Origin: an uncultured bacterium
GTDB lineage: Bacteria > Verrucomicrobiota > Lentisphaeria > Victivallales > UBA1829
DNA length: 64,000 nucleotides
Assembly (NCBI GenBank): GCA_902778895.1
Contig: CACYZF010000003.1
Coordinates: forward strand, 3,798-67,797
Reading direction: 5' to 3'
The position numbers and the translations under genes are program-made. The number at the start of each line of letters is the position of its first letter. Positions within the stretch are counted from its first letter, which is position 1. The notes under the pieces are model-generated. The model was not told where the DNA came from. It made no database searches and saw nothing but the letters and a program-made list of their open reading frames with translations. This document shows positions 20,131 to 61,946 of the stretch, in pieces.

Positions 20131-20574
20131 ATGCCCAGAATTTTAGGTGTAGACATCCCGATGAACAAGCGCGTGAAGTACGCGCTCCAGGCCATTTACG
20201 GCATCGGCCCCGCGATCGCGGAAGAGATCATCGTCAAGGCGAACATCGACCCGAACCTGAAGGCGAGCCAGCTTTCCGACGAAAACATCTCGGCCATTAC
20301 CACTCTGCTTCAGAACGACTACACGGTGGAAGGCGACCTCCGCCGTGAGATCATGATCAACGTCCGCCGCCTCCAGGCGATCGGATGCTATCGCGGCCTC
20401 CGCCACAAGAAAGGCCTGCCGACCCGCGGCCAGCGTACGCGCACCAACGCCCGTACCCGCAAAGGCAAACGCGTTACCGTCGGCGCCATCCGCGACAAAA
20501 CGCAGCGCCGCACCGCCGCCTCCGATAAGGCCGCGGCCGCCGAAGCCGCCGCAGGCAAAGCCGCCAAGAAGTGA
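20131..20574 (+). CDS. rpsM: 30S ribosomal protein S13
   Basis: MPRILGVDIPMNKRVKYALQAIYGIGP ... GLRHKKGLPTRGQRTRTNARTRKG, with an Ala/Lys-rich C-terminal extension. Confidence 0.95.
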   Translation: MPRILGVDIPMNKRVKYALQAIYGIGPAIAEEIIVKANIDPNLKASQLSDENISAITTLLQNDYTVEGDLRREIMINVRRLQAIGCYRGLRHKKGLPTRGQRTRTNARTRKGKRVTVGAIRDKTQRRTAASDKAAAAEAAAGKAAKK

Positions 20575-38010: not shown

Positions 38011-38110
38011 ATATAATGCGCGTTGTTTCCCGGCGGGGAAACACGCCTGAATCCCGAAACATACAAACATAACATACACAAAACAAAACCAATTGAAAGG
38101 TAAGCTCAAA

Positions 38111-38965
38111 ATGAAACATTGCAAACAGGCGTTTACCCTCATTGAGCTGCTGGTCGTCATCTGCATCATCGCGATCCTGGCGTCCATGCTGCTGCCCGCT
38201 CTGCAGAGTGCGCGTGAAAGTGCAAGTACCGCGACCTGCATCAGCAACCTCGGCCAGTTCTCCAAGGCGTACCAGATGTATGCAACCAGTTACAACGACT
38301 ACATGCCCGCCCTCACCGACGGACAGACCGGCTCCAGTTGCAGCTGGGAAAGAGCTCTGATCTCGGCCCTCGGACAGGATCCGGACAAGAATTCCCCGTT
38401 CAAGAACTCCTTCTTCTGCGATGCCGACGCCTCCAGCGAAAGCGCGGCGGCCGGCGGAAACAAGAAGTCCTACAGCCTCAACAACCTGCAGGATGCCGTT
38501 CATCCGCGTATCCCCAACATGCTCGGCCCCAACGGCAAACTCGCCACGAAAGACGGCAGCAAAGGCTACATCAGCGGCAACAAGACCACGTCCGTCTTCA
38601 CCGCTTCCGACCTGATCATCATCGGCGAAAACGCCTCCTCGAGCAATAACATCGGTACCGCGAAGTTCTCCAAGACCGACGTCAACAGCCCCGGCTCCGC
38701 CAGCCCCATCCAGCAGTACATCGCCATCCTCAAGCGTCTCTCCTCCCACACCACCGCCGGCGAGCTCTATCTGGACGGCCATGCCAGACACATCAAGCCG
38801 CAGCAGACTCTCCCGGGCACCAGCACGTTCAACCTCGTCACCAAGACGACCTACAGCGACTCCCCGAAAACCGCGGCTTCCACCGGCTGGGGCAGCTGGA
38901 CGGACTGCAACTACCGCAAGGCCGGCAACGATTGCCCGGACGACACTTCCTGCCGCAAGAAATAA
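38111..38965 (+). CDS. prepilin-type N-terminal cleavage/methylation domain protein (DUF1559-like pseudopilin)
   Basis: [36 protein letters not shown] is a class III signal. C-terminal [12 protein letters not shown] resembles the H-X9-DG motif but has 8 intervening residues. Confidence 0.9.
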
Positions 38966-39312: not shown

Positions 39313-39684
39313 ATGAAAGGAACAGAAAATGGCTTGTTTCACCGCTCCCCTCGCCGCCGCAGTCGCCGCCGGACTCGTGTCCGCCGCACCGTGAAAGACA
39401 CCGGCAACACCGACACCATCAGCTGGGCCACGAAACTCGGCTGGCTCGAAAAGCTCTCCTTCGGCGGATGCGCCCTGCTCGCGTTCGAGCACATCTGGCA
39501 CGGCGAGATCATCTTCCAGTTCCCGTTCCTGACCGGAGTCCGCGACGGCAACGCGGCTGAAGTCATGCGCGAGATCGCGACCGTCGGCGGCGCCATGACC
39601 GCGCTCATCCTCGCCGTGTGGATCGGCATGCTGATCGTGAGTTCGGCCATCGTGAAGCACAAACCCGCTGCGATCCAGGGATAA
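39313..39684 (+). CDS. small membrane protein, hypothetical; N-terminus probably affected by a frameshift
   Basis: The C-terminal two-thirds has two TM helices (FGGCALLAFEHIWHGEIIF, VGGAMTALILAVWIGMLIVSSAIV). The annotated N-terminus (SPRRRSRRRTRVRR) is the off-frame reading of a hydrophobic ORF in the +1 frame (39329-39394, MACFTAPLAAAVAAGLVSAAP). Confidence 0.5.
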   Translation: MKGTENGLFHRSPRRRSRRRTRVRRTVKDTGNTDTISWATKLGWLEKLSFGGCALLAFEHIWHGEIIFQFPFLTGVRDGNAAEVMREIATVGGAMTALILAVWIGMLIVSSAIVKHKPAAIQG

Positions 39685-39737: not shown

Positions 39738-41258
39738 ATGAATCGAAGAGAGTTTATCAAAGAGACCGCCACGCTCACTGCGCTCGCCGCGATGTCCCGC
39801 CTCGCCGCGCAGACCGGCGTCGCTCCGGCCGACGCGAAATCGTCAGAGCCCTCGAAAGACGCTTCGAAGAAAGTTTCGCGCCGCAAGTATAAGAAGACCG
39901 ACCTCACAGTCCCGCTCCTCGGATACGGCATGATGCGCCTTCCGCAGAAGAACGGCAAGATCGACCGCGAAGAAGCGCAGAAGCTCGTCGACACGGCCAT
40001 GGCCGCCGGTCTGAACTACTTCGACACCGCCCAGCCGTACCACAACGGCGAAAGCCAGCAGTTCCTCGGCGAGGCGATGAAGAAGTACGACCGCAAATCC
40101 TACATGATCGCGACCAAGCTCCCGCTCTGGTCGCTCCGCTCCGCCGCCGAGGCGGAAACCACGTTCAAAGGCCAGCTCGAAGCCTGCAAGACGGATTACT
40201 TCGACTTCTACCTGATGCACGCGTTCAACGCGAACAGCTTCCGCACCTTCGAGAATCTCAAGCTCTACGATTATTTCAAGAAGCAGAAAGAAGCCGGAAA
40301 GATCAAACTCCTCGGCTTCTCCTTCCACGATTCCCCGGAAGCGCTTGAGACCATCGTGAACGCGCACGAATGGGATTTCTGCCAGATCCAGCTCAATTTC
40401 GTCGACTGGGACGCGCAGAACGCCAAGCGCATGTACGAGTTCCTGACCTCGAAGGACATCCCCGTCATCATCATGGAACCGCTTCAGGGCGGCCGTCTCG
40501 CCAACCTCACTCCGGCAGCCGTCGAGGTTCTCAAGAAGGCCAATCCGAAGGCTTCCGCGGCGTCCTGGGCGTTCCGCTATGCGGCTTCGCTCCCGAACGT
40601 GCTCACGGTCCTCAGCGGCATGACCACGATGGAAGTGCTGAAGGAAAACATCGAGACCTTCACCGACTTCAAGCCGCTGACCGACGCCGAACGCAAAGTC
40701 CTGGACGAGGCCCGCGACGTGTATCTGGGCGTCTCCAAGAGCCGCGTCCCCTGCACGACCTGCAGATACTGTGTCAATGAATGCCCGGTCAAGATCGAGA
40801 TTCCCGCGGTATTCACCGCATGGAACGACTTCTGTGAAAAGAAGGACGAGGCCGCCTTCAAGGAAGCCTACAACAAGCTTGCAGTGAAGGCCAGCGCCTG
40901 CATCGGCTGCCGCCGTTGCGTCAGAAGATGCCCGCAGCAGATCGATATCCCGACCGAACTTGGCAAGATCGCGCAGGCCGCGGGCGACAGTGCCGGCGGC
41001 GGTCGCGGCGGCCGTGGCGGCCGTGGCGGCGGCATGGGTGGCGGCTTTGGCGGAGGCCAGGGTGGCTTCGGCGGCGGCCAGGGTGGCTTCGGCGGCGGCC
41101 AGGGTGGCTTCGGCGGCGGCCAGCGTCCCGGAGGCGGCTTTGGCGGAGGCCAGGGCGGCTTCGGCGGCGGCTTTGGCGGAGGCCAGGGCGGCTTCGGCGG
41201 CGGCTTTGGCGGAGGCCAGGGTGGCTTCGGTGGAGGCCAGCGCCCCGGCGGTCGCTGA
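39738..41258 (+). CDS. Tat-signal aldo/keto reductase with C-terminal 2x[4Fe-4S] ferredoxin domain and glycine-rich tail
   Basis: Twin-arginine motif MNRREFIKETATLTALAAMSRLAAQ. AKR core (LLGYGMMRLP..., FDTAQPYHNGESQQFLGEAM). Cys clusters CTTCRYCVNECP and CIGCRRCVRRCP. Final ~87 aa are GGGRGGRGGRGGG(M)GGGFGGGQGGFGGGQ... repeats. Confidence 0.85.
   Translation: MNRREFIKETATLTALAAMSRLAAQTGVAPADAKSSEPSKDASKKVSRRKYKKTDLTVPLLGYGMMRLPQKNGKIDREEAQKLVDTAMAAGLNYFDTAQPYHNGESQQFLGEAMKKYDRKSYMIATKLPLWSLRSAAEAETTFKGQLEACKTDYFDFYLMHAFNANSFRTFENLKLYDYFKKQKEAGKIKLLGFSFHDSPEALETIVNAHEWDFCQIQLNFVDWDAQNAKRMYEFLTSKDIPVIIMEPLQGGRLANLTPAAVEVLKKANPKASAASWAFRYAASLPNVLTVLSGMTTMEVLKENIETFTDFKPLTDAERKVLDEARDVYLGVSKSRVPCTTCRYCVNECPVKIEIPAVFTAWNDFCEKKDEAAFKEAYNKLAVKASACIGCRRCVRRCPQQIDIPTELGKIAQAAGDSAGGGRGGRGGRGGGMGGGFGGGQGGFGGGQGGFGGGQGGFGGGQRPGGGFGGGQGGFGGGFGGGQGGFGGGFGGGQGGFGGGQRPGGR
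40995..41255 (+). repeat. in-frame tandem glycine-rich coding repeat (unit about 21-24 nt, GGFGGGQ)
   Basis: Repeated GGCGGAGGCCAGGGTGGCTTCGGCGGC units visible in the DNA. Encodes (GGFGGGQ)n punctuated by QRPGG. Confidence 0.85.
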
Positions 41259-41321: not shown

Positions 41322-41358
41322 AACGGGCTCGGGCTTTTCAACCCGGGCCCGTTTTTTT
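41322..41358 (+). terminator. rho-independent terminator after the AKR gene
   Basis: AACGGGCTCGGG-CTTTTCAA-CCCGGGCCCGTT stem (one mismatch) followed by TTTTTTT. Confidence 0.75.
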
Positions 41359-45925: not shown

Positions 45926-47404
45926 ATGCTCAAACTCGCCCGGTGCATCCCGCTGTTCGCGTTCGCCGTTCTGCCTCCGGCTCTGTCCGGACAGACCGCG
46001 TCCGGCGGCGCGGACGACGCCTCGACCCAGACTCTGCGTTTCGTGCAGGACGACGCCCAGGACTACATGGTGTCGAAGATCTACCGCCTGAAATACATCC
46101 AGGCTAACGACATCACGCCGTTCGTGATGGGGATCGTGATGCGCTACAACATGAACTCCACCGTGAACTGCGTGGAGTACGGCGCGGACAACGCCCAGAT
46201 GCTCACCGTGACGTGTCCCGTCGAAATGATGCCGTACGTGGACGACTTCATCGCGAAAGCCGACCGGAACGTCCTCATCGACGGCAAGGTCCCCGGCGAC
46301 ATCGTGAAGGGGACGGGCATCACGCGTGCCGTCTACCGTCCGAAATACCGGTCCGGGCAGGCGCTGCTGAACGTGCTGGTCGATTCGCAGATCGGCGAAG
46401 GCGTGTACAGCAGCGTGTACGCCTGGGACCGCAACTCCAACCAGATCTACTGGAAGGACAACAGTTCGAACACGCAGTACGTATACCAGTTCCTCGGCTA
46501 CCTGGACCGTCCTGCGCCGCAGATCACGCTCACGTTCCAGCTCTACGAGGTCCGCGAAAGTACGTTCCGCGACCTCGGGATCGAGTATCTGGCGTGGAAA
46601 AACGGCCCCGGCATGAACATCTTTCAGGTCGGATTCGACGTCATCAACGTGACGTCCGCCGGAACCGCCGCGCTCAACACCATCACCGGACCGGTCGGCG
46701 GATTCCTCGCCGCGCCGCAGTTCGACGCGAGCTTCATCCGTCTCCTCGCCCAGCGCGGCGACGCGAAGGTCACGGACACCGCCTCGCTGACCGTGGCGAA
46801 CTCCGACACGGAGAGCTATTCGCTCCAGTTCAATCCGCAACTCCAGAACATCGTGAAAAGCGACAACGACGCCATGAGCGTGGTCGGCGACCAGCTTAAT
46901 CTGCCGCCCGGATTCTCGCAGGTCTTCCTGCAGGTGAACAGCCCCCTCGTCAACCTCCATTACGGCGAATCCCAGGCGGGATACCCGGCGAGCGAGGCGT
47001 TCTCCGTGAACAACTATGAACCGGGGACGTATACGGACATGAACGGTACGCTGTTCTTCGGCTACACCGTGCAGGCCGCGAACACGGTCGAACGCGCGGG
47101 CGACGGCACGGAACTGATCGAAACGAGCGAGGTCTCCAGCGACGCCCTGATCCCGCTCAACGAGGAGGTCGTGCTCGGCCAGTGGGACAAGGAGCAGGAC
47201 GTGGAGCAGACGATCGGCATCCCGTGGCTGTGCCGCATCCCGTACCTCAAATACATCTTCAGCACCGTCACGACCAACCGCGAGACGACCCGCGTGTACC
47301 TCACCGTGACCGCGCGGATGCTGGACAGCGCGAGCCCGCAGACGCTCGATTTCGAAACCGGCGAACTGAAGAAAGTCGAAAAAGCGGAAGGAACCGTACA
47401 ATGA
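45926..47404 (+). CDS. secretin-family outer-membrane channel protein, paralog A
   Basis: 492 aa. Signal peptide. N-domain-like KIYRLKYIQANDITPFV. Secretin core begins at QITLTFQLYEVRESTFRDLGIEY. C-terminal signature GIPWLCRIPYLKYIFSTVTTNRETTRVYLTVTARM. Confidence 0.8.
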   Translation: MLKLARCIPLFAFAVLPPALSGQTASGGADDASTQTLRFVQDDAQDYMVSKIYRLKYIQANDITPFVMGIVMRYNMNSTVNCVEYGADNAQMLTVTCPVEMMPYVDDFIAKADRNVLIDGKVPGDIVKGTGITRAVYRPKYRSGQALLNVLVDSQIGEGVYSSVYAWDRNSNQIYWKDNSSNTQYVYQFLGYLDRPAPQITLTFQLYEVRESTFRDLGIEYLAWKNGPGMNIFQVGFDVINVTSAGTAALNTITGPVGGFLAAPQFDASFIRLLAQRGDAKVTDTASLTVANSDTESYSLQFNPQLQNIVKSDNDAMSVVGDQLNLPPGFSQVFLQVNSPLVNLHYGESQAGYPASEAFSVNNYEPGTYTDMNGTLFFGYTVQAANTVERAGDGTELIETSEVSSDALIPLNEEVVLGQWDKEQDVEQTIGIPWLCRIPYLKYIFSTVTTNRETTRVYLTVTARMLDSASPQTLDFETGELKKVEKAEGTVQ

Positions 47405-49179
47405 AGCAAATCAACCTCATTTCCATCGTTGCGGCGGGTATTGTGAGCCTGCTGAATCCGAACATGCGCGCCGCCGACCTGCCCGGCGTCCCGCGCGACT
47501 CCAATTTCAACAACACCGGCGGCTACGACGCCACGCGGATCGTCGCCCGCCTGAACGTGAACGTGGACCCGGGGACGAAGGTCGTGCATTTCATCCGGGA
47601 CAACAACGACCCGCGCGTGGTCACGAAGACCTATCTGCTCCGGCACGTCGACCCGTACGAGTTCCGCGACTATCTGCGCCAGATGGTCCAGACGAAGCGC
47701 GTCGGCAACACCATGCTCCAGCAGCAGTACCCGTCGAACACCGCCGCGCCGCCGTTCCTCGCCACGGAAAGCTCCGTCGAGCTCGGCTCCGCCAACGCCC
47801 AGCCCGGCTACACGCCGCCCGTCCAGCTCGGCAGCAACACCGCCGTCGAGTGCCTGAAGTATGCCGACGGAACCGGGCTGCTCATCGTCAGCGCCGAAGA
47901 GTACCGGTTCAGCGACAACGAGAACGGCATCGGCATCGACACGCTGGTTGCCACGCTCGACGACCCGGCACTCGGCGCGCTGAACTACGGCTATCAGATG
48001 TACATCTACATGCCGAAATTCGTGCCCGCGCGCAACCTGATGCCGCTCATCGAAAACGTCGGCATGAACATCAACGACGCGTCGGAGGTGTGGCAGGGCA
48101 TGGACCTGGTCGCGTACGACCCGGATCTGAACTGGCTCATCTTCGACGTCTGCAACTACTCCTGCGACAACATCGCGCACATGCTCGCCAAGTTCGACGT
48201 CCCGGTCCCGCAGGTCCGCCTGAAGATCAAGGTCTACGAGCTCGACACCGAGAACGACGACCGCATCGGCATCGACTTCCAGGGCTGGAAGAACAACGAG
48301 GGCGCGGACTTCTTCTCCGTCGGCGGACGCTACCGCAACAACTGGTCGTCCGTGTACAGCGGCGGCGTCGGCCCGGTCTCCGCCTACGGCTCCGAGCGCA
48401 CCAGCTACTTCAACTTCAACCCGAAGTGGAACACACGCTACATCGACTTCCTGGAATCGCGCGGCAAGGCGAAGGTCCTGCACACCGGCGAACTCTGCAT
48501 CCGCAACGCCGCCGAGGGTGCCACGTTCGCGCGTACCACGCAGCTGCTCTACTCCGACGACTCCGCGGCCGTCTCGAAGGCGCAGGCCACGCCCGACATG
48601 GGCGTCGGCCCGTATCAGCTGCTTTCGCAGATCATCAACAAGGTATTCGACAAGGGCGATCCGCTCCCCGTCGGCAAGGGCGAGGCGCAGGAGATCAAGG
48701 CGTTCACGGGATTCGGGTTCACCATGACCGTGAACAACGTCTCCGTCAACCTCGAGGAAACGCGTTTCGACGTCACGCTCTCCAACACCAGCCTGCTTGG
48801 GTTCCAGTCCAACGGCGCGCCGCGCGTTTCGAACGGCGGCGTGGTGAAGCAGGTCGTCAGCCTGCCGCACGGCAAGGACACGTTCGTGATCGGCGGCCTC
48901 ACGAAACAGGAAGAGGTCGAATCGCGCACGGGCGTGCCGTGGCTTATGGACATCCCCGTGCTCGGCTATCTCTTCAGCTCGGTCTCGAATTCGGTCAAGC
49001 ACACCGAGCTGGTCGTGATGGCGCAGTGCGAATGGGATTCGCCTGCCGACAAGCCCGACCTCAAGAACACCTCGAAGGCGGAGACGCGCGGCGCGCCCGT
49101 CGCGGCGAAGAAAACCGCCTCGGGGCCCGTCATGCCCGCGCAGAACATCCCGGCGGACGTCCCGCAGCCTCAGATTTGA
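47401..49179 (+). CDS. secretin-family outer-membrane channel protein, paralog B
   Basis: 592 aa from ATG 47401, which overlaps the paralog A stop (ATGA). Signal peptide. KTYLLRHVDPYEFRDYL N-domain. Core VPQVRLKIKVYELDTENDDRIGIDF. C-terminal FVIGGLTKQEEVESRTGVPWLMDIPVLGYLFSSVSNSVKHTELVVM. Confidence 0.85.
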   Translation: MKQINLISIVAAGIVSLLNPNMRAADLPGVPRDSNFNNTGGYDATRIVARLNVNVDPGTKVVHFIRDNNDPRVVTKTYLLRHVDPYEFRDYLRQMVQTKRVGNTMLQQQYPSNTAAPPFLATESSVELGSANAQPGYTPPVQLGSNTAVECLKYADGTGLLIVSAEEYRFSDNENGIGIDTLVATLDDPALGALNYGYQMYIYMPKFVPARNLMPLIENVGMNINDASEVWQGMDLVAYDPDLNWLIFDVCNYSCDNIAHMLAKFDVPVPQVRLKIKVYELDTENDDRIGIDFQGWKNNEGADFFSVGGRYRNNWSSVYSGGVGPVSAYGSERTSYFNFNPKWNTRYIDFLESRGKAKVLHTGELCIRNAAEGATFARTTQLLYSDDSAAVSKAQATPDMGVGPYQLLSQIINKVFDKGDPLPVGKGEAQEIKAFTGFGFTMTVNNVSVNLEETRFDVTLSNTSLLGFQSNGAPRVSNGGVVKQVVSLPHGKDTFVIGGLTKQEEVESRTGVPWLMDIPVLGYLFSSVSNSVKHTELVVMAQCEWDSPADKPDLKNTSKAETRGAPVAAKKTASGPVMPAQNIPADVPQPQI

Positions 49180-53134: not shown

Positions 53135-56100
53135 TTATTTGAAGTCGGCGGCGGTCAATTCGACCGAGCCCTTCTTTCCGGTGAGGTCGACGGTCTTGCC
53201 GTTGTAGCGGGCGACGATCGGGATGCCGGTGAGGTCGGAGATCACGGCCTTGCCGAGGGTGCCGTTGTCCCACTGGATGGCGACCGTGGCGTTGCCGCGC
53301 GCCTTCAGTCCGGAGACGTTGCCTTTCGGGAGCGCCTTCGGGAGGCAGGGCAGAACGTCGATGATGGTCTTGCCGTCGGCGGTCGTCTCCTGCGACTGGA
53401 GCAGGATCTCGATCATGCCGGCCGCGCCGCCGAAGTTGCCGTCGATCTGGAACGGCGGATGCGCGTCGAAGAGGTTGTTGTAGGTCTTGTTCGGGTGGAT
53501 GAGATTGCTGACGAGCCGCCATGCGCGGTCGCCGTCGAGGAGGCGTGCCCACAGGTTGATCTTCCAGCCCATGCTCCAGCCGGTGGCGTCGTCGCCGCGG
53601 GCGTTCAGGGAGACCTTCGCGGCGTTGAAGAGGGCGGTGTCACTGGCGCGGATCACGTTGCCGGGGAACACGGTAAAGAGGTGGGAGACATGGCGGTGCT
53701 TGTTGTTCGGGTTGTCGTCCGGATGGTCGTCCATCCACTCGCGGAGCTGTCCCCAGGTGCCGATGGTGAACGGCGGGAACTTCTTCATCGCGGCTTCCAT
53801 CTTCGCGCGGAATTCGGGGTCGTCGTTGAGGAGCTTGGAGCTCTCGATGGTGGCCTTGAAGAGCGCGGTCAGGATGCCGGTGTCCATGGTCGGGGAGGCG
53901 CAGAGGCCGCCCTGTTCGGGCGAGTAGGACGGGATGGTGACGAGGACGCCGCCGTGCTTGGGATCGGGCTGGAGGAAGTCGAGGTAGAACGCCACGGATT
54001 CCTTCATGACCGGGTAGTGCTTGCGGAGGTCGTCGAGGTTGCGCGTGAACTGGTAGTGATCCCAGAAATGGAGGCACAGCCAGGCGCCGCCCATGGGCCA
54101 CATGCCGGTGGGCGAGAAGTCGATCGGGCCGCACTGGCGCCAGAGGTCGGTGTTGTGGTGCGCCACCCAGCCGTTGTCGACATTGTAGAGCTTCTTCGCG
54201 GCCTTCTTGCCGTTCGGGACCATCTCGTGGATCATGTCGAAGAGCGGCTCATGGCACTCGGAGAGGTTCGCGGTCTCGGCGGGCCAATAGTTCATTTCCG
54301 CGTTGATGTTGATCGTGTACTTGCTCTGCCACGGCACGTTCACCTCTTCGCTCCAGATGCCCTGAAGGTTGGCGGGCTGGCTGCCGGGACGGGAGCTGGC
54401 GATCAGGAGGTAGCGGCCGAACTGGAAGTAGAGGGACGCCAGGTCGGGGTCGAGCTGGTTGCCGGGCTGGCGGCGGGCGTTGAGGCGCTCGTCGGTCGGA
54501 AGTTTGGACGGGGTGCCGCCGAGGTCGAAGGTCACGCGGTCGAAGAGCTTGCGGTAGTCTGCGATGTGCGCCTTCTTCAGGGCGTCGTAATCAACGGAGC
54601 TGAACTTCTTGAAGACGTCGGCGATGCGCTTCGCGGGATCGCCGGAGACGTCGTTGTACGCCTTGAACGAGGATTCGGCGTCGAGCAGGATGACAACGGA
54701 GTCGGCCTTTTCCACGCTGATGCCGCGTTCGCCGGAGACGAGCTTGCCGCCCTTGTTGAACACGCGGCCAGTGATCTGGATGTTCGTCGCGCCCTTGATG
54801 CCGTTGTAGTCGATGGTGCGGCCGGTGAGGGTCATGGTGTTGCCTTCGACCTTGACGGCCTGGAGGTCCTGCGCGGTGCCGATGAAGGCTCCGACGGTGA
54901 TGCTGGCGGGCTTGTCGGCGGTCAGGCGCATGGCGACCACGCGGTCCGGATAGCTGGCGAAGTATTCGCGGGTGTAGGTCACGCCGTTGCGCGTGAATTT
55001 GGTCTGCGCGACGGCTTCGCGGATATTCAGGCTGTGGATGTAGCCGGAGATGTCGCCGTCGCCGGTGTCCTGTTCAAGCCCGAGCGCGCCCGCCACGGAG
55101 AACGCCATTTCGGCGCTCGGACGGGAAATGAAGCTGCTGTTCGCGATGTTTCCGGCCTGGTCCGCTCTGCCGTCGAAGATGAGCTGGCGCATCTGCGCGA
55201 GCTTCTCAGGGGTGGCGTCCGGATTCAGGTGGTCGTACGGACCGCCCGCCCAGATCGTGTCCTCGTTGAGGATGAGGTATTCACGCTCGGGACGGCCGGC
55301 GATCATCGCGCCCATGTGGCCGTTGCCGATGGGAATCATGTCAGTCCAGGTGCCGGGCATGCGGCGGAACCAGACCGTGAGCGGATCTTCGGGAGCCGGG
55401 GCGGGATTGGGATCGGCGTCGCCGCGGAGGATGTTCACGTTGCGGACGGGGAACAGGGGCACGCCTCCGGTGATGGGCTTCGCGGCCTTGATGTCCCAGG
55501 AGTAATTCGCCTTGGCATCGGCGAATCCCGCGGCCTCATCGGAACTGGAGTAGAGCTTGTTGATCTCGTCGGCGGAGAGGGCGCGGTCCCACAGCGCCAC
55601 ATAGTCGATCCGACCGTTGAACCGGCTGTTGCCGTTGGCGTCCGAACCGATGGTCATGGCGCGCCAGGTGGGCTCGCCGATCACATTGTTCGCGCGGCCC
55701 TGGGCGAGGCGTTCACCGTTCGCGTACACCTCGAAACGGTGTTCCTTCTGGCTCGCCACGATGACGAGTTTCACGGGTTTGCCTTTCGGGAAGCTGTCCG
55801 AGCTGACCTGCGCAGCTCCCTGGACGCCGTTCACACGGAGACCGGTCTGAGCCGCGGGCTGCTGTCCCCAGCCGCCGCCGGGGCCGCCGGGACCGCCGCC
55901 GAAGCCGCCGCCTCCGAATCCTCCGCCGGGGCCGCCGCCTCTGCCGCCACGGCCGCCGCCACCGCCGCCGGTGAAGCTGACGGAGAAGCCGCAGTTTCCG
56001 CCCTGCTGGTTCAGAAGAGTTCCGTTCCAGTTGTCGCTTTCAGCGGTGATGGCGATGGTCATTTCGTGCGGAGTCGAGAGCAGACGTCCGACGGGCGTGG

Positions 56101-56182
56101 AAAGAGGCTGCGAGGGTTCCGCCGCAACGGACGAGAGCGCGGCGAGGGCCATCAGAGCCGAACAGAGCAGGAAGCGTTTCAT
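53135..56182 (-). CDS. secreted GH95 alpha-L-fucosidase-family enzyme with N-terminal LamG-like domain
   Basis: 1015 aa. Signal peptide. LamG-like module (RFNGRIDYVALWDRALSADEINKLY). GH95 hallmarks IPIGNGHMGAMIAG...LILNEDTIWAGGP and YTININAEMNYWPAE. Confidence 0.85.
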   Translation of the reverse strand: MKRFLLCSALMALAALSSVAAEPSQPLSTPVGRLLSTPHEMTIAITAESDNWNGTLLNQQGGNCGFSVSFTGGGGGGRGGRGGGPGGGFGGGGFGGGPGGPGGGWGQQPAAQTGLRVNGVQGAAQVSSDSFPKGKPVKLVIVASQKEHRFEVYANGERLAQGRANNVIGEPTWRAMTIGSDANGNSRFNGRIDYVALWDRALSADEINKLYSSSDEAAGFADAKANYSWDIKAAKPITGGVPLFPVRNVNILRGDADPNPAPAPEDPLTVWFRRMPGTWTDMIPIGNGHMGAMIAGRPEREYLILNEDTIWAGGPYDHLNPDATPEKLAQMRQLIFDGRADQAGNIANSSFISRPSAEMAFSVAGALGLEQDTGDGDISGYIHSLNIREAVAQTKFTRNGVTYTREYFASYPDRVVAMRLTADKPASITVGAFIGTAQDLQAVKVEGNTMTLTGRTIDYNGIKGATNIQITGRVFNKGGKLVSGERGISVEKADSVVILLDAESSFKAYNDVSGDPAKRIADVFKKFSSVDYDALKKAHIADYRKLFDRVTFDLGGTPSKLPTDERLNARRQPGNQLDPDLASLYFQFGRYLLIASSRPGSQPANLQGIWSEEVNVPWQSKYTININAEMNYWPAETANLSECHEPLFDMIHEMVPNGKKAAKKLYNVDNGWVAHHNTDLWRQCGPIDFSPTGMWPMGGAWLCLHFWDHYQFTRNLDDLRKHYPVMKESVAFYLDFLQPDPKHGGVLVTIPSYSPEQGGLCASPTMDTGILTALFKATIESSKLLNDDPEFRAKMEAAMKKFPPFTIGTWGQLREWMDDHPDDNPNNKHRHVSHLFTVFPGNVIRASDTALFNAAKVSLNARGDDATGWSMGWKINLWARLLDGDRAWRLVSNLIHPNKTYNNLFDAHPPFQIDGNFGGAAGMIEILLQSQETTADGKTIIDVLPCLPKALPKGNVSGLKARGNATVAIQWDNGTLGKAVISDLTGIPIVARYNGKTVDLTGKKGSVELTAADFK
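55868..55969 (-). repeat. glycine-rich RGG/FGG low-complexity insertion inside the GH95 N-terminal domain
   Basis: Encodes GGGGGGRGGRGGGPGGGFGGGGFGGGPGGPGGGW (aa 72-105). The first 39 nt differ at only 3 positions from the start of the AKR tail repeat (40995-41033). Confidence 0.8.
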
Positions 56183-57061: not shown

Positions 57062-59659
57062 TTACTGCGCGGCGTCGGTGTGCGCCGCCAGGTCGCCGGG
57101 CGAATTGCTCCAGAGAAGCGCCAGGTTCGCGCCGCGCACCCAGCCCTCGTCGTTGTTTTCCAGCCGCACGCGCACCCAATCCATGCGGTTCTCCTCGATG
57201 GAGACCTCCGCACCGGGTTTCAGGTATTGTTCCACACGCCCGGATTCGGCGGACGGCAGACTGTACAGCGGCGTATTGCGGACGATCACGACGGCTTCGC
57301 GCGCCGGATCGTCGGCGGACGCCTTCGCGATGAGCGCGGCAGCGCAGATCACGACGACCACGATCCCGGCATAGAACGGCCATTGCCACAGATTCGAATG
57401 GCGCTGGAAGAACATCCCGAGCGCGATCAGCACGAGCGCGAGGCCGCACGCGCAGGATACGAGCCATTCATCCACGCGAAGGAAATCGCGGGCCGCAAGC
57501 ATGAAGTCCGCGGGCGACTCCACACGGTATTTCGGCGGCAGAAGCAGTTTGCGGCGCGTCAACTCCAGGTTGCCGGAGATGTCCGAATCGCGCGGCTGAA
57601 GATAGCGGGCGCGTTCATAGCAGACCAGGGCACGCGGATAGTCGCCAAGCTGGTAGAAGCAGTTGCCCATGTTGTAGAGCAGAGCAGGCGAGACGTTGCG
57701 CGGGTCGATCTTCGAAGCGTAGTAATCCAGCGCCTGCCGGAACTGCCCGGCGTCGTAAGCGGTTTTCGCCTCGTCCGAGTTCTTCGGGAGCACGGTTTCT
57801 GCGGAAACGGACTTGTCCGCCGGTGCGGATTCCTCTTCCGCGGCGTCCGCAGGCAATGCGAAACAGAGCGCGCCGAGGAGGAACGCGATCGCGCCGAACT
57901 TGCGGACAGCGGACGCGAGCTGTTTGCGGAATTTTACGTTGAGCTGACCGCGGAGCGACGGCATCCACGCGGTGTTCGCGAGGTCTTCGAGCTGGCGGCC
58001 GAGCTCCGGTTCGGAATCCTTCACACGGGACGCCGTTTCGCTCAGGGAGGTCCCCGGCGGTAGGTCGAGCATGTCGTTGAAGAACGCGGCCAGGTCCGCG
58101 CCGACTTTGTCCGGCAGGTCCTGAGGCGGCGTCTTTTCGATGGCGGAGGCGAGTCTGCCTCTGCGGGCGCGGGCGCCGATGCGCCTGCGTGCGGAAGGAT
58201 CGGATTCGAGGGAACGTTTCCGGGCGGCGGCCAATGCGCTTCCGCCCGCGAAGACGGAACCGGCGAGAATCAATCCAAGCGATATCCACAGGGCATTCAT
58301 CGCCAGCGGCATCGCCACGCGTCCGCCGTCGTCCTCGTCGTGCAGATACAGGATGCTTTCCGGCGCGGGCGCCGAGGCGGCGCCCGAGGTCAGGTCGGGA
58401 TCGGCGTTCACGACCGCCGCGCCAGCGGGGATCGCGGCCATGCCGCCGGACACGGCCTTGTCCACCTTGACCGTCTCACTGAACTTGAACGGGACATACT
58501 GGCCGGTCGACGGATCGAACGTGGAACAGTTGAAGGAAACGGTCTGTTCGCCCCCCGCAAGCGGAATGAGGATGCAGCTCACGGAGACGCCGGACGCCGT
58601 TTCCTTGGTCTCGGGCGGATACGCGCGGAAATGCTCCGGTTCGATCTTCGGCATGTTCAGCATCTCGGTCTGGTCCTCGCCCGTGAAGTTGATCTTGAGG
58701 CTAAGAGGTTCCCCGATGCGGTACGGACCGGGTGAAAGCGAGGCTTCCGGCGCCCATTTTCCGATGAGTCCGACGAACGGCGCGTCCGCGGGCGCGGCGG
58801 GCAACGGCTTGATCGTAATCTCCGGAGAAGCACCGCGGATGGTCTGCCGGGTCGTGGTGAACGCTGAGAAAAAGTCGCGTTCATCGAGCAGGATGGCGGC
58901 GGTATCGGCGACGAGCTGAAGCTGACCGGGCGCGAGCGCGCGGAATTTCGTGTCGAAATCGTACACGGTATACGGGATGTTTCCGAGGCGCTGGTTATGG
59001 CTGGTAATGGACTCGAAGTTCGGCGCTTCCGGATTGACCTTGCGGAAATCGTGGAACCGGATCGACATCTTTCCGTCGGCCGACTTGATCTCCGGGTAGT
59101 TCGCGAGGCGGAGTTCATACGGCGTGCGCACGAAAATCGAGAGCTGGAGCGGAATCTCCTCGCCGACCCAGAACACCGGCGTCTTGTCCTCCGCGACACC
59201 GGGGAACGTCATACGGGAGTAGACCGGCTCGTTGGAGTTCACCTGCGACGGGTCGAGCTTCGGCATGGCGGAGATCCGGATCCGGACTGGACCGGCCGAT
59301 TCCGGCTGGCGCGTGTTGCCGTTCACGATGACCTCGAATGACGGAATTGTGAAGTCGCCTTCCTCGCGGGCAGTGAACGGGATGCGGAGCGTGTATTTCG
59401 AGGAGGTCACGCCGTTGATGACGGACATGCTGGAGCCGCTGGAGATGCCGCTGTTCCACTCGATCCCGGAGACGCGTCCCGGCATCCGGTTGACCTGGAG
59501 ACGGCTCACGTTTTCGGCGGAGATCTCGATGTATCCGCGCATGCCCACGGTAAGGTTGCGCGGCTGGACGGAAACGTTCAGGTCGACGGCCGAGGCGGCA
59601 AACGCGAAAAGAAAGAGCAGGAAAGCAATGAGTCGGGGAAGAATCGTTCTGTTCGGCAT
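57062..59659 (-). CDS. BatD-like protein fused to BatE-like TPR + SH3 modules
   Basis: Signal peptide. BatD-type repeated beta domains (LNVSVQPRNLTVGMRGYIEISAENVS ... GDFTIPSFEVIVNG). TM helices. TPR (YNMGNCFYQLGDYPRALVCYERARYLQP). More TM helices. C-terminal SH3-like REAVVIVRNTPLYSLPSAESGRVEQYLKPGAEVSIEENRMDWVRV. The start may be 59683. Confidence 0.8.
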   Translation of the reverse strand: MPNRTILPRLIAFLLFLFAFAASAVDLNVSVQPRNLTVGMRGYIEISAENVSRLQVNRMPGRVSGIEWNSGISSGSSMSVINGVTSSKYTLRIPFTAREEGDFTIPSFEVIVNGNTRQPESAGPVRIRISAMPKLDPSQVNSNEPVYSRMTFPGVAEDKTPVFWVGEEIPLQLSIFVRTPYELRLANYPEIKSADGKMSIRFHDFRKVNPEAPNFESITSHNQRLGNIPYTVYDFDTKFRALAPGQLQLVADTAAILLDERDFFSAFTTTRQTIRGASPEITIKPLPAAPADAPFVGLIGKWAPEASLSPGPYRIGEPLSLKINFTGEDQTEMLNMPKIEPEHFRAYPPETKETASGVSVSCILIPLAGGEQTVSFNCSTFDPSTGQYVPFKFSETVKVDKAVSGGMAAIPAGAAVVNADPDLTSGAASAPAPESILYLHDEDDGGRVAMPLAMNALWISLGLILAGSVFAGGSALAAARKRSLESDPSARRRIGARARRGRLASAIEKTPPQDLPDKVGADLAAFFNDMLDLPPGTSLSETASRVKDSEPELGRQLEDLANTAWMPSLRGQLNVKFRKQLASAVRKFGAIAFLLGALCFALPADAAEEESAPADKSVSAETVLPKNSDEAKTAYDAGQFRQALDYYASKIDPRNVSPALLYNMGNCFYQLGDYPRALVCYERARYLQPRDSDISGNLELTRRKLLLPPKYRVESPADFMLAARDFLRVDEWLVSCACGLALVLIALGMFFQRHSNLWQWPFYAGIVVVVICAAALIAKASADDPAREAVVIVRNTPLYSLPSAESGRVEQYLKPGAEVSIEENRMDWVRVRLENNDEGWVRGANLALLWSNSPGDLAAHTDAAQ

Positions 59660-59663
59660 GATG

Positions 59664-61946
59664 TTACCAGTCCTTTTCCACACGGTTGTTCAGGCGGGCC
59701 GGACGCTGCAGGCGGTTGGCGTCCTTGTAGTCAAGTTCGTCTTTCGACATCATATCGAGAATGGCTTCCGCCTGCTGTTTTTCCATGTCGCCCATGTCCT
59801 GCGGCGCGTTCTGCATGTCGGACTGGTTCGGCTTTGCGTCGGGATGTTCCTGCTGGTCCTGTTCGCCCTGCGGCTGGTCCTGCTGGTTTTGTTCGCCCTG
59901 ATCGCCGCTTTTCTCGTCCTGTTCCTCCTGTTCGCCCTGTTGGTCCTGCTGACTCTGATTCAGCGTATCGAGCGCGTTTTTCAGGTGTTCCTCAGCCTTT
60001 TCGCCGTTGCCCTGTTCCTGTTCCTCGCGGGCCTTCTGAAGCTCTTCGCGCGCTTCCTGAGCGGCCTGTTTCTGGCGTTCCTGATTCATCTCGGACGCTT
60101 TCTGTTCCAGCTCGGAAACGGTATCTTCCGCCTGTTTCGTCTTGTCCTGCGCGGACTGCTGGTCCTGCTGTTGGTTCTGATCGCCGGATTGCTGCTGATC
60201 CTGAGAAGACTGCTGGTCCTGCTGTTGGTTCTGATCGTCGGACTGCTGCTGATCCTGAGAAGACTGCTGGTCCTGCTGTTGGTTCTGATCGTCGGACTGC
60301 TGCTGATCCTGTTGCTGATCCTGCTGATTCTCCTGCTGTTGCTGATCGTGCGCGTCCTGCGTCTGCTGACGCGCCTGTTCCATAAGCTTCTTCAGGTCTT
60401 CGATCTGCTTCTTCAACTCCTCGGCCTGTTTGCGGTCGGCGAGAAGGATCTGCTGATTGCGGATGACGGACGCGTCGCCGGCGGCGGAACGCATGCTTTC
60501 GCGATAAAGCTCCTCTGTCTGATTCAGCTTGGTCAACGCCTCTCCGACGGCTTTTTCGGCGGAGTTGAGGTCCTGCGCGTGAAGCTTTTCCACAGCGCCC
60601 TGCATGCTGGAACGCGCATCGAGGTGGGAGATCACGCCGATGTTCTGGTACGAGGAGGCGCGCACAAGCGGTTCCTTTTCGGAGGCGGCGATGGCGCGTT
60701 CATAGAACGAACGGGCCTTCTCGTTGTCCTGTTCGACCTGCTGCTGTTCCAGCCCGCTGTTGTAAAGCTCTGACGCCGATTTGACGGGTTCCGGCGCAGT
60801 TTGTTCCTCCCCGGGTTCCTCCGTCGCGGGCGCGGCGGCCTGTGACTGCTGAATTTGAACCGGAGCGGCGGCCTGCGCCCGGGATTCGTCCGGCACGGCA
60901 AAAAGCAGAAGTGCGGCAAGTGCGAGCACGGTCTGAACGGAACGCGGGCGCGTTTCGGAGACGCAGAAGAACAGCGCGAACAGAATGATCGCGGCTGTGA
61001 GCGGATAGGCGGGACGTTCGATGGGCCGAAACGAGGAAACAGCGTTTTCGCTCTCCTTACGGTCGAGCTGACGGATGCGGTTTTCGAGTTCGTCGATTCC
61101 GCTGTACGCGGCGGTGGAACGGATATAGATGCCGCCCGTACGGCGGGCAAGTTCGGTCAGCTGAGGTTCGTTCAGCGGGCTTTTGACCGGATTTCCCTCG
61201 CGGTCCGTGAGAATGCGGAGCGTGCCGTCCTCGTCCGGGACGCGGATGACCGCCGGATTCGACGGATCGCCGACGCCGACCGCGAAGATCGGGATCTGCG
61301 CTTTGGAAAGGTCATTGACAACCGATGCGCCGCGTCCGGTCAGTTCATCGCCGTCCGTCACGAGGACGACGGCCTTGTGCATGCCCTGCGCCCCCTGGAA
61401 CGCCCTGACGGCCTCTTCCAGTGCGAGCTGGACGTTCGTGCCGCCGACCGGGATCGTGTCGACGTCGAGATCGTCGACGAGCTGGATGAAGCTCGCCCGG
61501 TCCACGGTCAGCGGACAGACCAGGAAAGATTCGCCCGCGAACGCGATGAGGCCGAACCGGTCGCCCGGATTCTTCTTCACGATTTCGCGCACGAGCCACT
61601 TCGCATGGTCCATGCGGCTCGGCTTCACGTCGTCGGAGAGCATGCTTTTCGAAACGTCGAACACTACGAGCAGATCGCGTCCGGTGGAAGTATTGTGCAT
61701 GACCTGTTTGCCCCAGGACGGACGGGCGGCGGCAACGGCCAGGAGCAGCACGACGAGCATGAGCAGGATGATGCGGAAGACGCGTTTGCCGGGCGAAGCG
61801 TTGGAGAACCGGGCGGCGCGTTCGTCCGTACCGAACATTTTGAGCAGAAGTTTATTCCGGCGGACGGCGCCCGCGATGGCCAGAACGAGGATCAACGGGA
61901 TGATCCACAGTAAATTCCATAATATGCTGCCGTTGAGAAATGACAT
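59664..61946 (-). CDS. BatB-like VWA protein fused to BatC-like TPR and a Q/D-rich coiled/low-complexity C-terminus
   Basis: N-terminal TM pair plus VWA domain (LLVVFDVSKSMLSDD ... GGTNVQLALEEA ... VVLVTDGDE). TM helix. TPR-like (ARSFYERAIAASEKEPLVRASSYQNIG). Long QQ(D/S)Q repeats. Confidence 0.8.
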   Translation of the reverse strand: MSFLNGSILWNLLWIIPLILVLAIAGAVRRNKLLLKMFGTDERAARFSNASPGKRVFRIILLMLVVLLLAVAAARPSWGKQVMHNTSTGRDLLVVFDVSKSMLSDDVKPSRMDHAKWLVREIVKKNPGDRFGLIAFAGESFLVCPLTVDRASFIQLVDDLDVDTIPVGGTNVQLALEEAVRAFQGAQGMHKAVVLVTDGDELTGRGASVVNDLSKAQIPIFAVGVGDPSNPAVIRVPDEDGTLRILTDREGNPVKSPLNEPQLTELARRTGGIYIRSTAAYSGIDELENRIRQLDRKESENAVSSFRPIERPAYPLTAAIILFALFFCVSETRPRSVQTVLALAALLLFAVPDESRAQAAAPVQIQQSQAAAPATEEPGEEQTAPEPVKSASELYNSGLEQQQVEQDNEKARSFYERAIAASEKEPLVRASSYQNIGVISHLDARSSMQGAVEKLHAQDLNSAEKAVGEALTKLNQTEELYRESMRSAAGDASVIRNQQILLADRKQAEELKKQIEDLKKLMEQARQQTQDAHDQQQQENQQDQQQDQQQSDDQNQQQDQQSSQDQQQSDDQNQQQDQQSSQDQQQSGDQNQQQDQQSAQDKTKQAEDTVSELEQKASEMNQERQKQAAQEAREELQKAREEQEQGNGEKAEEHLKNALDTLNQSQQDQQGEQEEQDEKSGDQGEQNQQDQPQGEQDQQEHPDAKPNQSDMQNAPQDMGDMEKQQAEAILDMMSKDELDYKDANRLQRPARLNNRVEKDW
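60154..60311 (-). repeat. 54-nt in-frame tandem repeat (about 2.9 copies) encoding the QDQQQSDDQNQQQDQQSS unit
   Basis: Units 60154-60207, 60208-60261 and 60262-~60311 are nearly identical on the plus strand (GACTGCTGGTCCTGCTGTTGGTTCTGATCGTCGGACTGCTGCTGATCCTGAGAA). Confidence 0.85.

Follow-up and report, generated by a model that had tools for sequence, protein, structure and literature searches.

Why should an apparently exported bacterial enzyme end in a long chain of glycines broken up by arginine, phenylalanine and glutamine? The question is raised by an aldo/keto reductase (AKR) gene in a 64,000-nucleotide (nt) stretch of contig CACYZF010000003.1 (GenBank assembly GCA_902778895.1, positions 3,798 to 67,797, forward strand) from an uncultured Victivallales bacterium of the Lentisphaeria. 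We refer to this whole stretch as the window. The AKR product carries the glycine-rich chain as its C-terminal tail, and a related segment lies in a glycoside hydrolase family 95 (GH95) gene of the same window (Table 1). An earlier note on this DNA had described both, and the open reading frame (ORF), its translation and the tandem repeats were all confirmed. Lentisphaeria of gut and rumen attach such stretches to many exported proteins, and the AKR tail is one instance of this.

The AKR tail and its host enzyme

Positions 40995–41255 of the window encode exactly GGGRGGRGGRGGGMGGGFGGGQ(GGFGGGQ)3RPGGGFGGGQGGFGGGFGGGQGGFGGGFGGGQGGFGGGQRPGGR, and the stop codon follows at 41256–41258. Glycine makes up 69% of this tail. 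RGG boxes are recognised by a tri-RGG pattern, RGG-X0–4-RGG-X0–4-RGG, and the tail has RGGRGGRGG at amino acids (aa) 423–431 of the AKR. Tandem Repeats Finder detected a 21-nt unit present in 3.9 copies with 96% identity at 41043–41123, and arrays of 21 and 42 nt reach as far as 41240. Listing of the codons showed a strong bias toward GGC. The tail thus has the marks of a slippage-type low-complexity region (LCR), namely tandem nucleotide units, homogeneous codons and rapid length polymorphism in close relatives.

When the AKR was modelled with AlphaFold2 using 68 sequences, the enzyme core had a predicted local confidence score (pLDDT) above 90, whereas aa 424–506 had a pLDDT of 34–42 and no secondary structure. 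According to this model the tail is predicted to be a coil and intrinsically disordered. No match to the tail was obtained in Pfam or NCBIfam, including the sorting-signal models of NCBIfam, and the tail has no hydrophobic stretch. A protein search with the tail alone gave as its sole match a weak Hfq-domain protein (E = 7); this search was nearly empty because the bias correction of HMMER strips the scores of glycine-rich sequence. At least three contig records, of up to 298,781 bp, carry the exact 506-aa product. Because of this, and because tails are present in 37 other independently assembled sequences, we conclude that the tail is not an assembly artefact.

The host is a recognisable enzyme. 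Pfam places Aldo_ket_red at aa 61–325 (E 4.6e-45) and 4Fe-4S dicluster/Fer4 families at aa 336–403, and the two Cys4 clusters of the protein were invariant across the 68 homologs compared. The N-terminus reads MNRREFIK; with NRREFIK on a protein that has two Cys4 clusters, this twin-arginine motif is a putative signal for the twin-arginine translocation (Tat) system. An RR(E/D)F(L/I)K start is common to AKR homologs across the family. The TAT_signal model (PF10518) scored the ortholog-type N-terminus at 28.5 bits against a cut-off of 22.7 and did not match the variant in the window. Orthologs with RREFLKSAAA pass this hidden Markov model. The AKR in the window reads RREFIKETAT, with KETAT in place of KSAAA and an acidic residue directly after the Tat motif.

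Conservation and constraint among orthologs

The closest set of AKR proteins consists of 38 sequences, including the one in the window, with about 63–95% identity to the latter. All 38 have a glycine-rich tail, and the named members of the set are Lentisphaeria metagenome-assembled genomes (MAGs). By contrast, AKR homologs with 54% identity or less lack it and either end directly after the ferredoxin domain or bear a different extension. In three orthologs the upstream gene order is the same (GAF-histidine kinase, aminotransferase, RsmE, metallophosphatase, lactamase_B, prepilin-like gene, AKR), so these three checked orthologs are positional. The neighbourhood was different in a fourth genome examined.

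Tail length ranged from 18 to 87 aa in this set, with the copy in the window being the longest. The 1,949 tail residues are 64% G, 11% R, 5.8% P, 5.7% F, 5.3% M, 5.0% Q and 1.8% A; D occurs once and C, E, H, K, T, W and Y do not occur. A single nucleotide change turns GGC into a codon for S, R, C, D, A or V, and yet D, S, C and V are almost missing, whereas F, M, Q and P are regular punctuation even though they are at least two nucleotide changes away. Glycine runs are two or three residues long in 474 of 501 cases, never exceed four, and are separated by single F, M, Q, P or R residues. The head of the tail, AAGD[NS]A-GGGRGGRGGR, is conserved and 25 of the 38 tails end in GGGR. Arginine is restricted to the ends while the neutral G/F/M/Q middle lengthens and shortens, and the net charge is 5.7 ± 0.9 (range +3 to +7) with a slope of only 0.03 per added residue. 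Arginine at fixed ends around a neutral middle of changing size indicates selection on pattern and composition together with length change driven by slippage. Together, these data show that selection retains the tail in every sequenced ortholog, acting on composition and pattern rather than exact sequence, and that the tail grows and shrinks as its GGC-rich units of 21 and 33 nt slip or recombine unequally.

More distant members of the family were also compared. The homologs of about 50% identity without a glycine-rich tail include P0040, P0044, P0045, P0047, P0050 and P0054–P0061. Many homologs at this level of identity carry a conserved C-terminal extension of the form ...(F/L)(F/W)(T/S)PDxE(x)(x)(V/C), for example SLFWTPDSETLV, and this suggests that short motifs specific to individual lineages are placed at the C-terminus of this Tat-signal AKR family. 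One ortholog of 449 aa (P0039) has a sigma-70 region-4-like sequence (PF04545) after the second Cys cluster and is probably a chimeric contig or frameshifted assembly.

The GH95 insert and the question of shared descent

The second host in the window has Pfam matches to Glyco_hydro_95_cat (E 7e-167), Glyco_hyd_65N_2, GH95_C and Laminin_G_3. The Laminin_G_3 match picks up again at aa 113, which is profile position 54. Because this alignment spans the glycine-rich module, the module is an insert in an internal loop and not a tail. AlphaFold2 modelled it as a coil between strands at aa 68–70 and 114–118 (mean pLDDT 43, seven near-identical sequences), which weakly backs the loop position. By inspection only, the N-terminus MKRFLLCSALMALAALSSVAA appears Sec-like. 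The earlier note had assigned export signals to both host proteins, and this agrees with the twin-arginine motif of the AKR and the Sec-like start of GH95. The insert is 20–41 aa long in all full-length members read of its 90% cluster and in a Victivallales ortholog (L041), and its flanks, CGFSVS...GGWGQQPA, are conserved. It has only a di-RGG motif, compared with tri-RGG in the AKR tail. A search with the GH95 N-terminus that included the insert gave no match, with glycine-rich words swamping the list of 8000 candidates. When aa 22–262 were compared with a representative library, one true ortholog cluster (84% identity) was found along with generic LamG repeats of giant proteins.

A six-frame scan of the 64 kb identified the AKR tail and the GH95 insert as the only strong glycine-rich segments. 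A weak third match at 20506–20571 on the minus strand was rejected because its ORF appears to be a spurious antisense one. An extra 10 kb beyond the right edge contained no new host gene.

The two segments are alike at the DNA level. In the register GGGRGGRGGRGGG / GGGGGGRGGRGGG they are identical at 36 of 39 nt, and both use GGT as codon 3 and CGT as codon 7. The earlier note had reported both the count and the shared codons correctly, and it read the segments as a transferable module. It is very unlikely that they are copies of one mobile module spread by recombination or gene conversion, since a likeness of this size is not above background: unrelated genes in different genomes matched at 34–38 of 39 nt, and 36 was equalled or beaten among them. 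The AKR gene of one locus and the esterase gene of another (L049 and L050) agreed at 38 of 39 nt, the AKR gene in the window and the same esterase at 34, and the true GH95 orthologs of the window and L041 at only 31. Furthermore, the orthologs of each gene have their own conserved flanks and flavour. The likeness is thus due to GGC codon bias and a common residue grammar rather than to ancestry, and we rejected shared descent of the tail and the insert on the basis of this control.

Similar stretches on other proteins

We scanned one genome per GTDB species for the strict motif G-R-GG-R-GGG-x-GGG-F-GGG and found it in 47 species, with about two-thirds of the matches in envelope or exported proteins. 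Hosts included eight TPM-domain proteins, seven outer-membrane barrels, DPP-IV and M14 peptidases, a PQQ dehydrogenase, a GH95 ortholog and secreted planctomycete proteins in which the motif directly follows the signal peptide. Eight were cytoplasmic nucleic-acid binders, among them four RRM proteins, a single-stranded DNA-binding protein (SSB), two pseudouridine synthases and ribosomal protein S3. The motif is thus not specific to eukaryotes, and its bacterial hosts are mostly envelope proteins. The view that such a tail is eukaryote-like and uncommon on exported bacterial proteins was not supported, since the motif is carried by proteins with a TPM domain, by outer-membrane barrels, by secreted proteins of planctomycetes and by many carbohydrate-active enzymes (CAZymes) of Lentisphaeria.

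A metagenome scan for the variant MGGFGGGMGGF returned at least 120 loci. Hosts among the matches listed include CE1-like and Abhydrolase_2 esterases, CE15 glucuronoyl esterases, GH43, GH9, CotH proteins and lipoproteins, and also N-terminally anchored small proteins, Bacteroidota outer-membrane barrels and small secreted soil proteins. In these matches and in the window the stretch may follow a signal peptide or the cysteine of a lipoprotein, occupy a loop, separate two domains or form the C-terminus. In a Lentisphaeria MAG, the gene beside AKR encodes a signal peptide followed immediately by (MGGFGGG)n. Stretches reach about 300 aa in hosts with Sec-type or lipoprotein signal peptides, and some proteins hold multiple copies.

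To tally families, the stretches were masked before clustering, which gave 34 assessable host families of the MGGFGGGMGGF variant among the matches listed. N-termini resembling signal peptides were present in 30 of these 34 families compared with 16 of 35 neighbouring called genes (binomial p about 3e-7), so the enrichment in signal-peptide proteins that the earlier note had proposed as a check was found. The clear cytoplasmic exceptions were SRP54/Ffh and a eukaryote-type Hsp70. These belong to classes already known for G/M/F-rich tails (PMC6821194). The remaining two non-assigned families are a probable membrane protein (L069) and one with a likely missed signal peptide (L156). A DnaJ-like fragment was also among the matches listed and was too short for the tally. 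Members of the Ffh cluster are named Lentisphaeria by NCBI.

Some of these hosts have features worth recording individually. A GH43 enzyme (L054:3354-5276, minus strand) contains about 290 aa of G/A/P/M/F low-complexity sequence inside its beta-propeller, and a GH9 enzyme (L101:6396-9908, minus strand) is interrupted by an insertion of about 200 aa past residue ~630; in each enzyme the two catalytic halves are still recognisable. The SRP54/Ffh proteins of Lentisphaeria (L066, L100, L127) end in (MGGFGGG)n and then RMRGSNYTPPKKKRRKK, and the length of the tail differs (475–489 aa) within one 90% cluster. Bacteroidota barrels of the OMP_b-brl_3 / CarboxypepD_reg type, about 1000–1080 aa long, have a glycine-rich RGG/FGG or MGGF tail at the extreme C-terminus, an unusual extension past the last strand, and a second glycine-rich segment near residue 290–330 (L065, L068, L080, L089, L103, L109, L113, L138, L140, L152 and L157; also L001, L021, L027 and L044). 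A small secreted family of about 130 aa, MRGRVMMILASAVLAGSLLATGAQA-RGGGGGGGGHGGGGGFGGGHMGGG..., consists almost wholly of a Gly/His/Phe/Met stretch and is encoded on contigs with soil-type identifiers (L058, L062, L073, L079, L081, L088, L091, L106, L115, L129, L135 and L144).

A possible function of the stretches

We favour, with a probability of roughly 55%, the idea that the stretch provides extracytoplasmic proteins with a disordered tether or sticky appendage that acts irrespective of its position, an elastomer-like coil that is kept by selection on composition. A flexible tether or adhesion tail was among the suggestions of the earlier note, and from the present evidence it would still be the best reading. 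Because the stretch is found at any position in its hosts, a physical action is likelier than a role as an address label. The secreted protein abductin offers a possible model. It consists of a signal peptide and [GGFGGMGGGX]n, with di- and tri-glycine blocks split by single residues and 58% Gly, and is a random-coil elastomer (PMC9999432). The stretch would likewise be a highly mobile, abductin-like random-coil chain and could act as a flexible spacer or tether. The sparse aromatic and Met stickers of this chain, along with the Arg head, may bind weakly and multivalently to polymers of the envelope, the surfaces of substrates or other stretches of the same kind, and such weak binding might retain or cluster exported enzymes close to the cell. 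The Tat system tolerates hydrophilic unstructured FG repeats to about 100–120 aa with falling efficiency (PMC6708511), and a hydrophilic disordered tail of less than about 100 aa would be compatible with Tat export of a folded iron–sulfur enzyme. AKR tails do not exceed 87 aa compared with about 300 aa in hosts with Sec-type or lipoprotein signals, although this is a correlation in a small sample.

Several points weigh against this idea. A role in tethering, adhesion or clustering is deduced from composition, position and distribution. The tail in the window is of the F/Q type with one Met, and the likeness to abductin is stronger in the orthologs. Hosts number only two in the ~74 kb of this genome that were covered. 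The metagenome scan was seeded by one 11-residue motif and is a sample rather than a proteome, the attribution to Lentisphaeria comes from the NCBI names of named members with the lineage of most metagenomic hosts only inferred, and the signal-peptide heuristic is crude and permissive, with a 46% background, and also misses the Tat signal of the AKR. A single-chain antibody fragment with an unstructured tail was not exported by Tat, according to a study as cited in PMC6708511. Fast length change and GGC homogeneity are also compatible with a nearly neutral process.

The last point is the basis for what we regard as the most serious competitor, although an unlikely one: that slippage in a GC-rich genome produces the stretches as nearly neutral by-products, which persist without a function of their own where they do little harm. 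The near-identical 21-nt units, the spread of 18–87 aa among close orthologs, the strong GGC bias and the location of the stretches only in termini and loops are all expected from this, and GGC slippage is a general driver of bacterial LCRs (PMC6821194). Neutral slippage accounts for the changes in size. It does not account for the residue grammar, in which D, S, C and V are almost missing though one mutation from GGC and F, M, Q and P are common, for the absence of any Gly run above four, for the constant net charge, or for the presence of the tail, in frame and with conserved head and end, in every ortholog to about 63% identity. An improbable alternative in which the stretch is functional is that it acts as a chaperone-like or solubilising entropic bristle, as in the G/M/F-rich tails of GroEL, DnaJ, Hsp70 and Ffh, and keeps exported enzymes soluble or competent for folding outside the cytoplasm, where ATP-dependent chaperones are lacking. 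G/M/F-rich LCRs are a signature of chaperones in prokaryotes (PMC6821194), the Ffh of Lentisphaeria bears the same MGGFGGG tail, and the tails of orthologous AKRs are rich in M and F. However, the host proteins are ordinary enzymes whose many folds are unrelated, and copies of 200–300 aa or several copies per protein exceed what a solubility tag needs.

The earlier note had also raised the possibility of a recognition tag for a dedicated route of export, surface retention or secretion, for instance via the abundant type II secretion-like machinery of this lineage. The strong association with signal-peptide proteins would fit such a tag, as would the two secretin genes and the prepilin-type N_methyl gene in the window. 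We nonetheless disfavour it as quite improbable, since the position of the stretch is not fixed, its length and sequence are highly variable, and it occurs alike on a protein with a Tat signal and on proteins with Sec-type signal peptides. Neither a hydrophobic helix nor a basic anchor is present in it, and the sorting-signal models of NCBIfam gave no match. Least probable of all, we think, is a true RGG-box that binds RNA or extracellular DNA like the RGG proteins of eukaryotes, Acinetobacter Hfq or SSB. The tri-RGG head has the right form, the strict motif is shared by bacterial RRM proteins, SSB and pseudouridine synthases, and the GGFGGQ repeats of Hfq are functional (PMC11617691). Against this, the AKR has a twin-arginine signal and no nucleic-acid-binding domain, the hosts of such stretches are mostly exported hydrolases, and Arg is limited to the ends of the tail. 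Returning to the tether or sticky appendage, a more elaborate version is conceivable but doubtful. In this, Gly/Phe/Met/Arg stickers and spacers would bring many exported enzymes, among them esterases, GH43, GH9, GH95 and AKR, together in a joint gel or condensate, located either in the periplasm or on the surface of the cell. This would be a counterpart of the cellulosome free of cohesin and dockerin, possibly sticking to plant-wall surfaces.

We found nothing relevant in the literature on glycine-rich features in Lentisphaerae or Victivallales, and a conserved Gly/Phe/Met/Arg grammar on many exported proteins was not found in the searchable literature. Low-complexity stretches are routinely masked and hence overlooked. 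Here, a strict compositional grammar is kept among orthologs and is found again on many exported enzymes for plant-wall degradation in an uncultured lineage of rumen and gut, and some copies, hundreds of residues in length, lie within catalytic domains. Should the stretches tether, retain or cluster their hosts, diderm bacteria would have a means of organising extracellular digestion that had not been recognised before, and abductin-like elastomeric sequences would have a natural source. If the stretches are merely tolerated slippage, they would still be a clean case of selection on composition rather than sequence, and also a warning not to take bacterial RGG/FG motifs for eukaryote-like ones.

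Gene neighbourhood and features of the window

Table 1. Positions in the window of the AKR and GH95 genes, their glycine-rich segments and associated elements.
Feature	Position	Strand	Basis
AKR gene, 506 aa: aldo/keto reductase and 4Fe-4S dicluster, N-terminal twin-arginine motif, C-terminal Gly-rich tail	39738..41258	+	ORF, Pfam, AlphaFold2 core
Putative Tat-type signal region, MNRREFIKETATLTALAAMSRLAAQ	39738..39812	+	RR motif read from sequence
Gly-rich low-complexity tail, 87 aa: tri-RGG head, GGFGGGQ / GGFGGGFGGGQ units, QRPGG punctuation, ...RPGGR end	40995..41255	+	
Conserved cationic head of the tail, GGGRGGRGGRGGG	40995..41033	+	19/38 tails begin exactly GGGRGGRGGR, others are close variants
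Tandem DNA arrays building the variable middle of the tail, 21-nt then 21/33-nt units	41043..41240	+	Repeat finder, codon listing
Terminator-like hairpin and T-run, ~72 nt past the AKR stop	41330..41358	+	Consensus scan, pattern match only
GH95 gene, 1015 aa: exported alpha-L-fucosidase-type enzyme with N-terminal LamG domain	53135..56182	-	Pfam
Gly-rich insert, 34 aa, at GH95 aa 72–105 in a LamG loop, GGGGGGRGGRGGGPGGGFGGGGFGGGPGGPGGGW	55868..55969	-	Sequence, Pfam alignment

The prepilin-type N_methyl gene (38093–38965, plus strand) sits just upstream of the AKR gene, and two adjoining secretin-domain genes (45926–47404 and 47401–49179, both plus strand) lie less than 10 kb from it. A conserved ORF of about 120 aa without a Pfam match (...TISWATKLGWLEKLS...) is present at 39313–39684 on the plus strand of the window and at L050:830-1189; it is directly 5' of the AKR gene in some genomes and absent there in others.

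The window also contains a second, acidic kind of low-complexity sequence. A 54-bp tandem repeat at 60154–60311 (2.9 copies, 98% identical) encodes a Gln/Asp-rich block, QQDQQSSQDQQQSDDQNQ, three times over. This block is in the C-terminal part of a BatB-like membrane protein with a VWA domain, encoded by a minus-strand gene at 59664–61946 that adjoins a BatD/TPR/SH3 gene at 57062–59683.

Comparison with known systems

Several known systems that might be thought related were rejected. FG-nucleoporin repeats require spacers of about 10–20 polar (S/T/N/Q) residues, whereas the spacers here are two or three glycines. No model of a C-terminal sorting signal (PEP-CTERM, LPXTG, GlyGly-CTERM, the C-terminal domain of type IX secretion substrates or the Tat C-tail anchor) matched; there is no hydrophobic segment, and such stretches also lie internally, as in GH95, or at the N-terminus, as in other hosts. 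Polyglycine-II bundles, as in snow-flea antifreeze protein and the phage gp38 adhesin, are folded and have a strict three-residue Gly periodicity. The units here are 7, 8 or 11 residues with mixed GG and GGG spacing, and AlphaFold2 predicted no structure.

Other systems are alike in part. Eukaryotic RGG/RG boxes and glycine–arginine-rich domains have the same tri-RGG head in a disordered Gly-rich context with aromatics, but the host here is an exported AKR with Fer4 domains and no RNA-binding domain, and Arg is present only at the tail ends. The C-terminal GGFGGQ repeats of Acinetobacter Hfq, which vary in copy number (PMC11617691), are close to the GGFGGGQ units of the AKR in sequence, location and variability; Hfq, however, is a cytoplasmic RNA chaperone with an Sm fold and without an export signal. 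The GGM tail of GroEL, the G/F region of DnaJ, the GGMP repeats of Hsp70 and the C-terminus of SRP54/Ffh belong to the same composition class (PMC6821194), but they are on cytoplasmic chaperone and targeting machines whereas the hosts here are exported enzymes. The TPM-domain proteins and Bacteroidota OMP_b-brl_3 barrels bear the same strict motif on envelope proteins of different phyla and host families, and their tails are likewise uncharacterised.

The closest comparisons are with secreted proteins. The Ser/Thr/Pro linkers of secreted CAZymes are likewise disordered, variable in length and often interdomain, and LCRs of prokaryotic CAZymes are reported to be enriched in S and T (PMC6821194). 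The stretches described here differ from them in their G/F/M/Q/R/A composition and in occurring also at termini and inside folded domains. With abductin, they have in common secretion, about 58–64% Gly, di- and tri-glycine blocks split by single Phe or Met residues and a predicted coil, and units of GGFGGGMGG that are nearly exact occur in the tails of orthologous AKRs and in the CAZyme stretches of Lentisphaeria. Abductin is an animal structural material, cross-linked into bulk rubber in the hinge ligament of bivalves, whereas the stretch here is an appendage of bacterial enzymes, and the Arg-Gly head and Q/P punctuation of the AKR tails also set them apart; the likeness is convergent and does not imply homology. 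The stretch is thus a member of no curated family tested, and what it resembles are the disordered linkers and tails of secreted enzymes and abductin.

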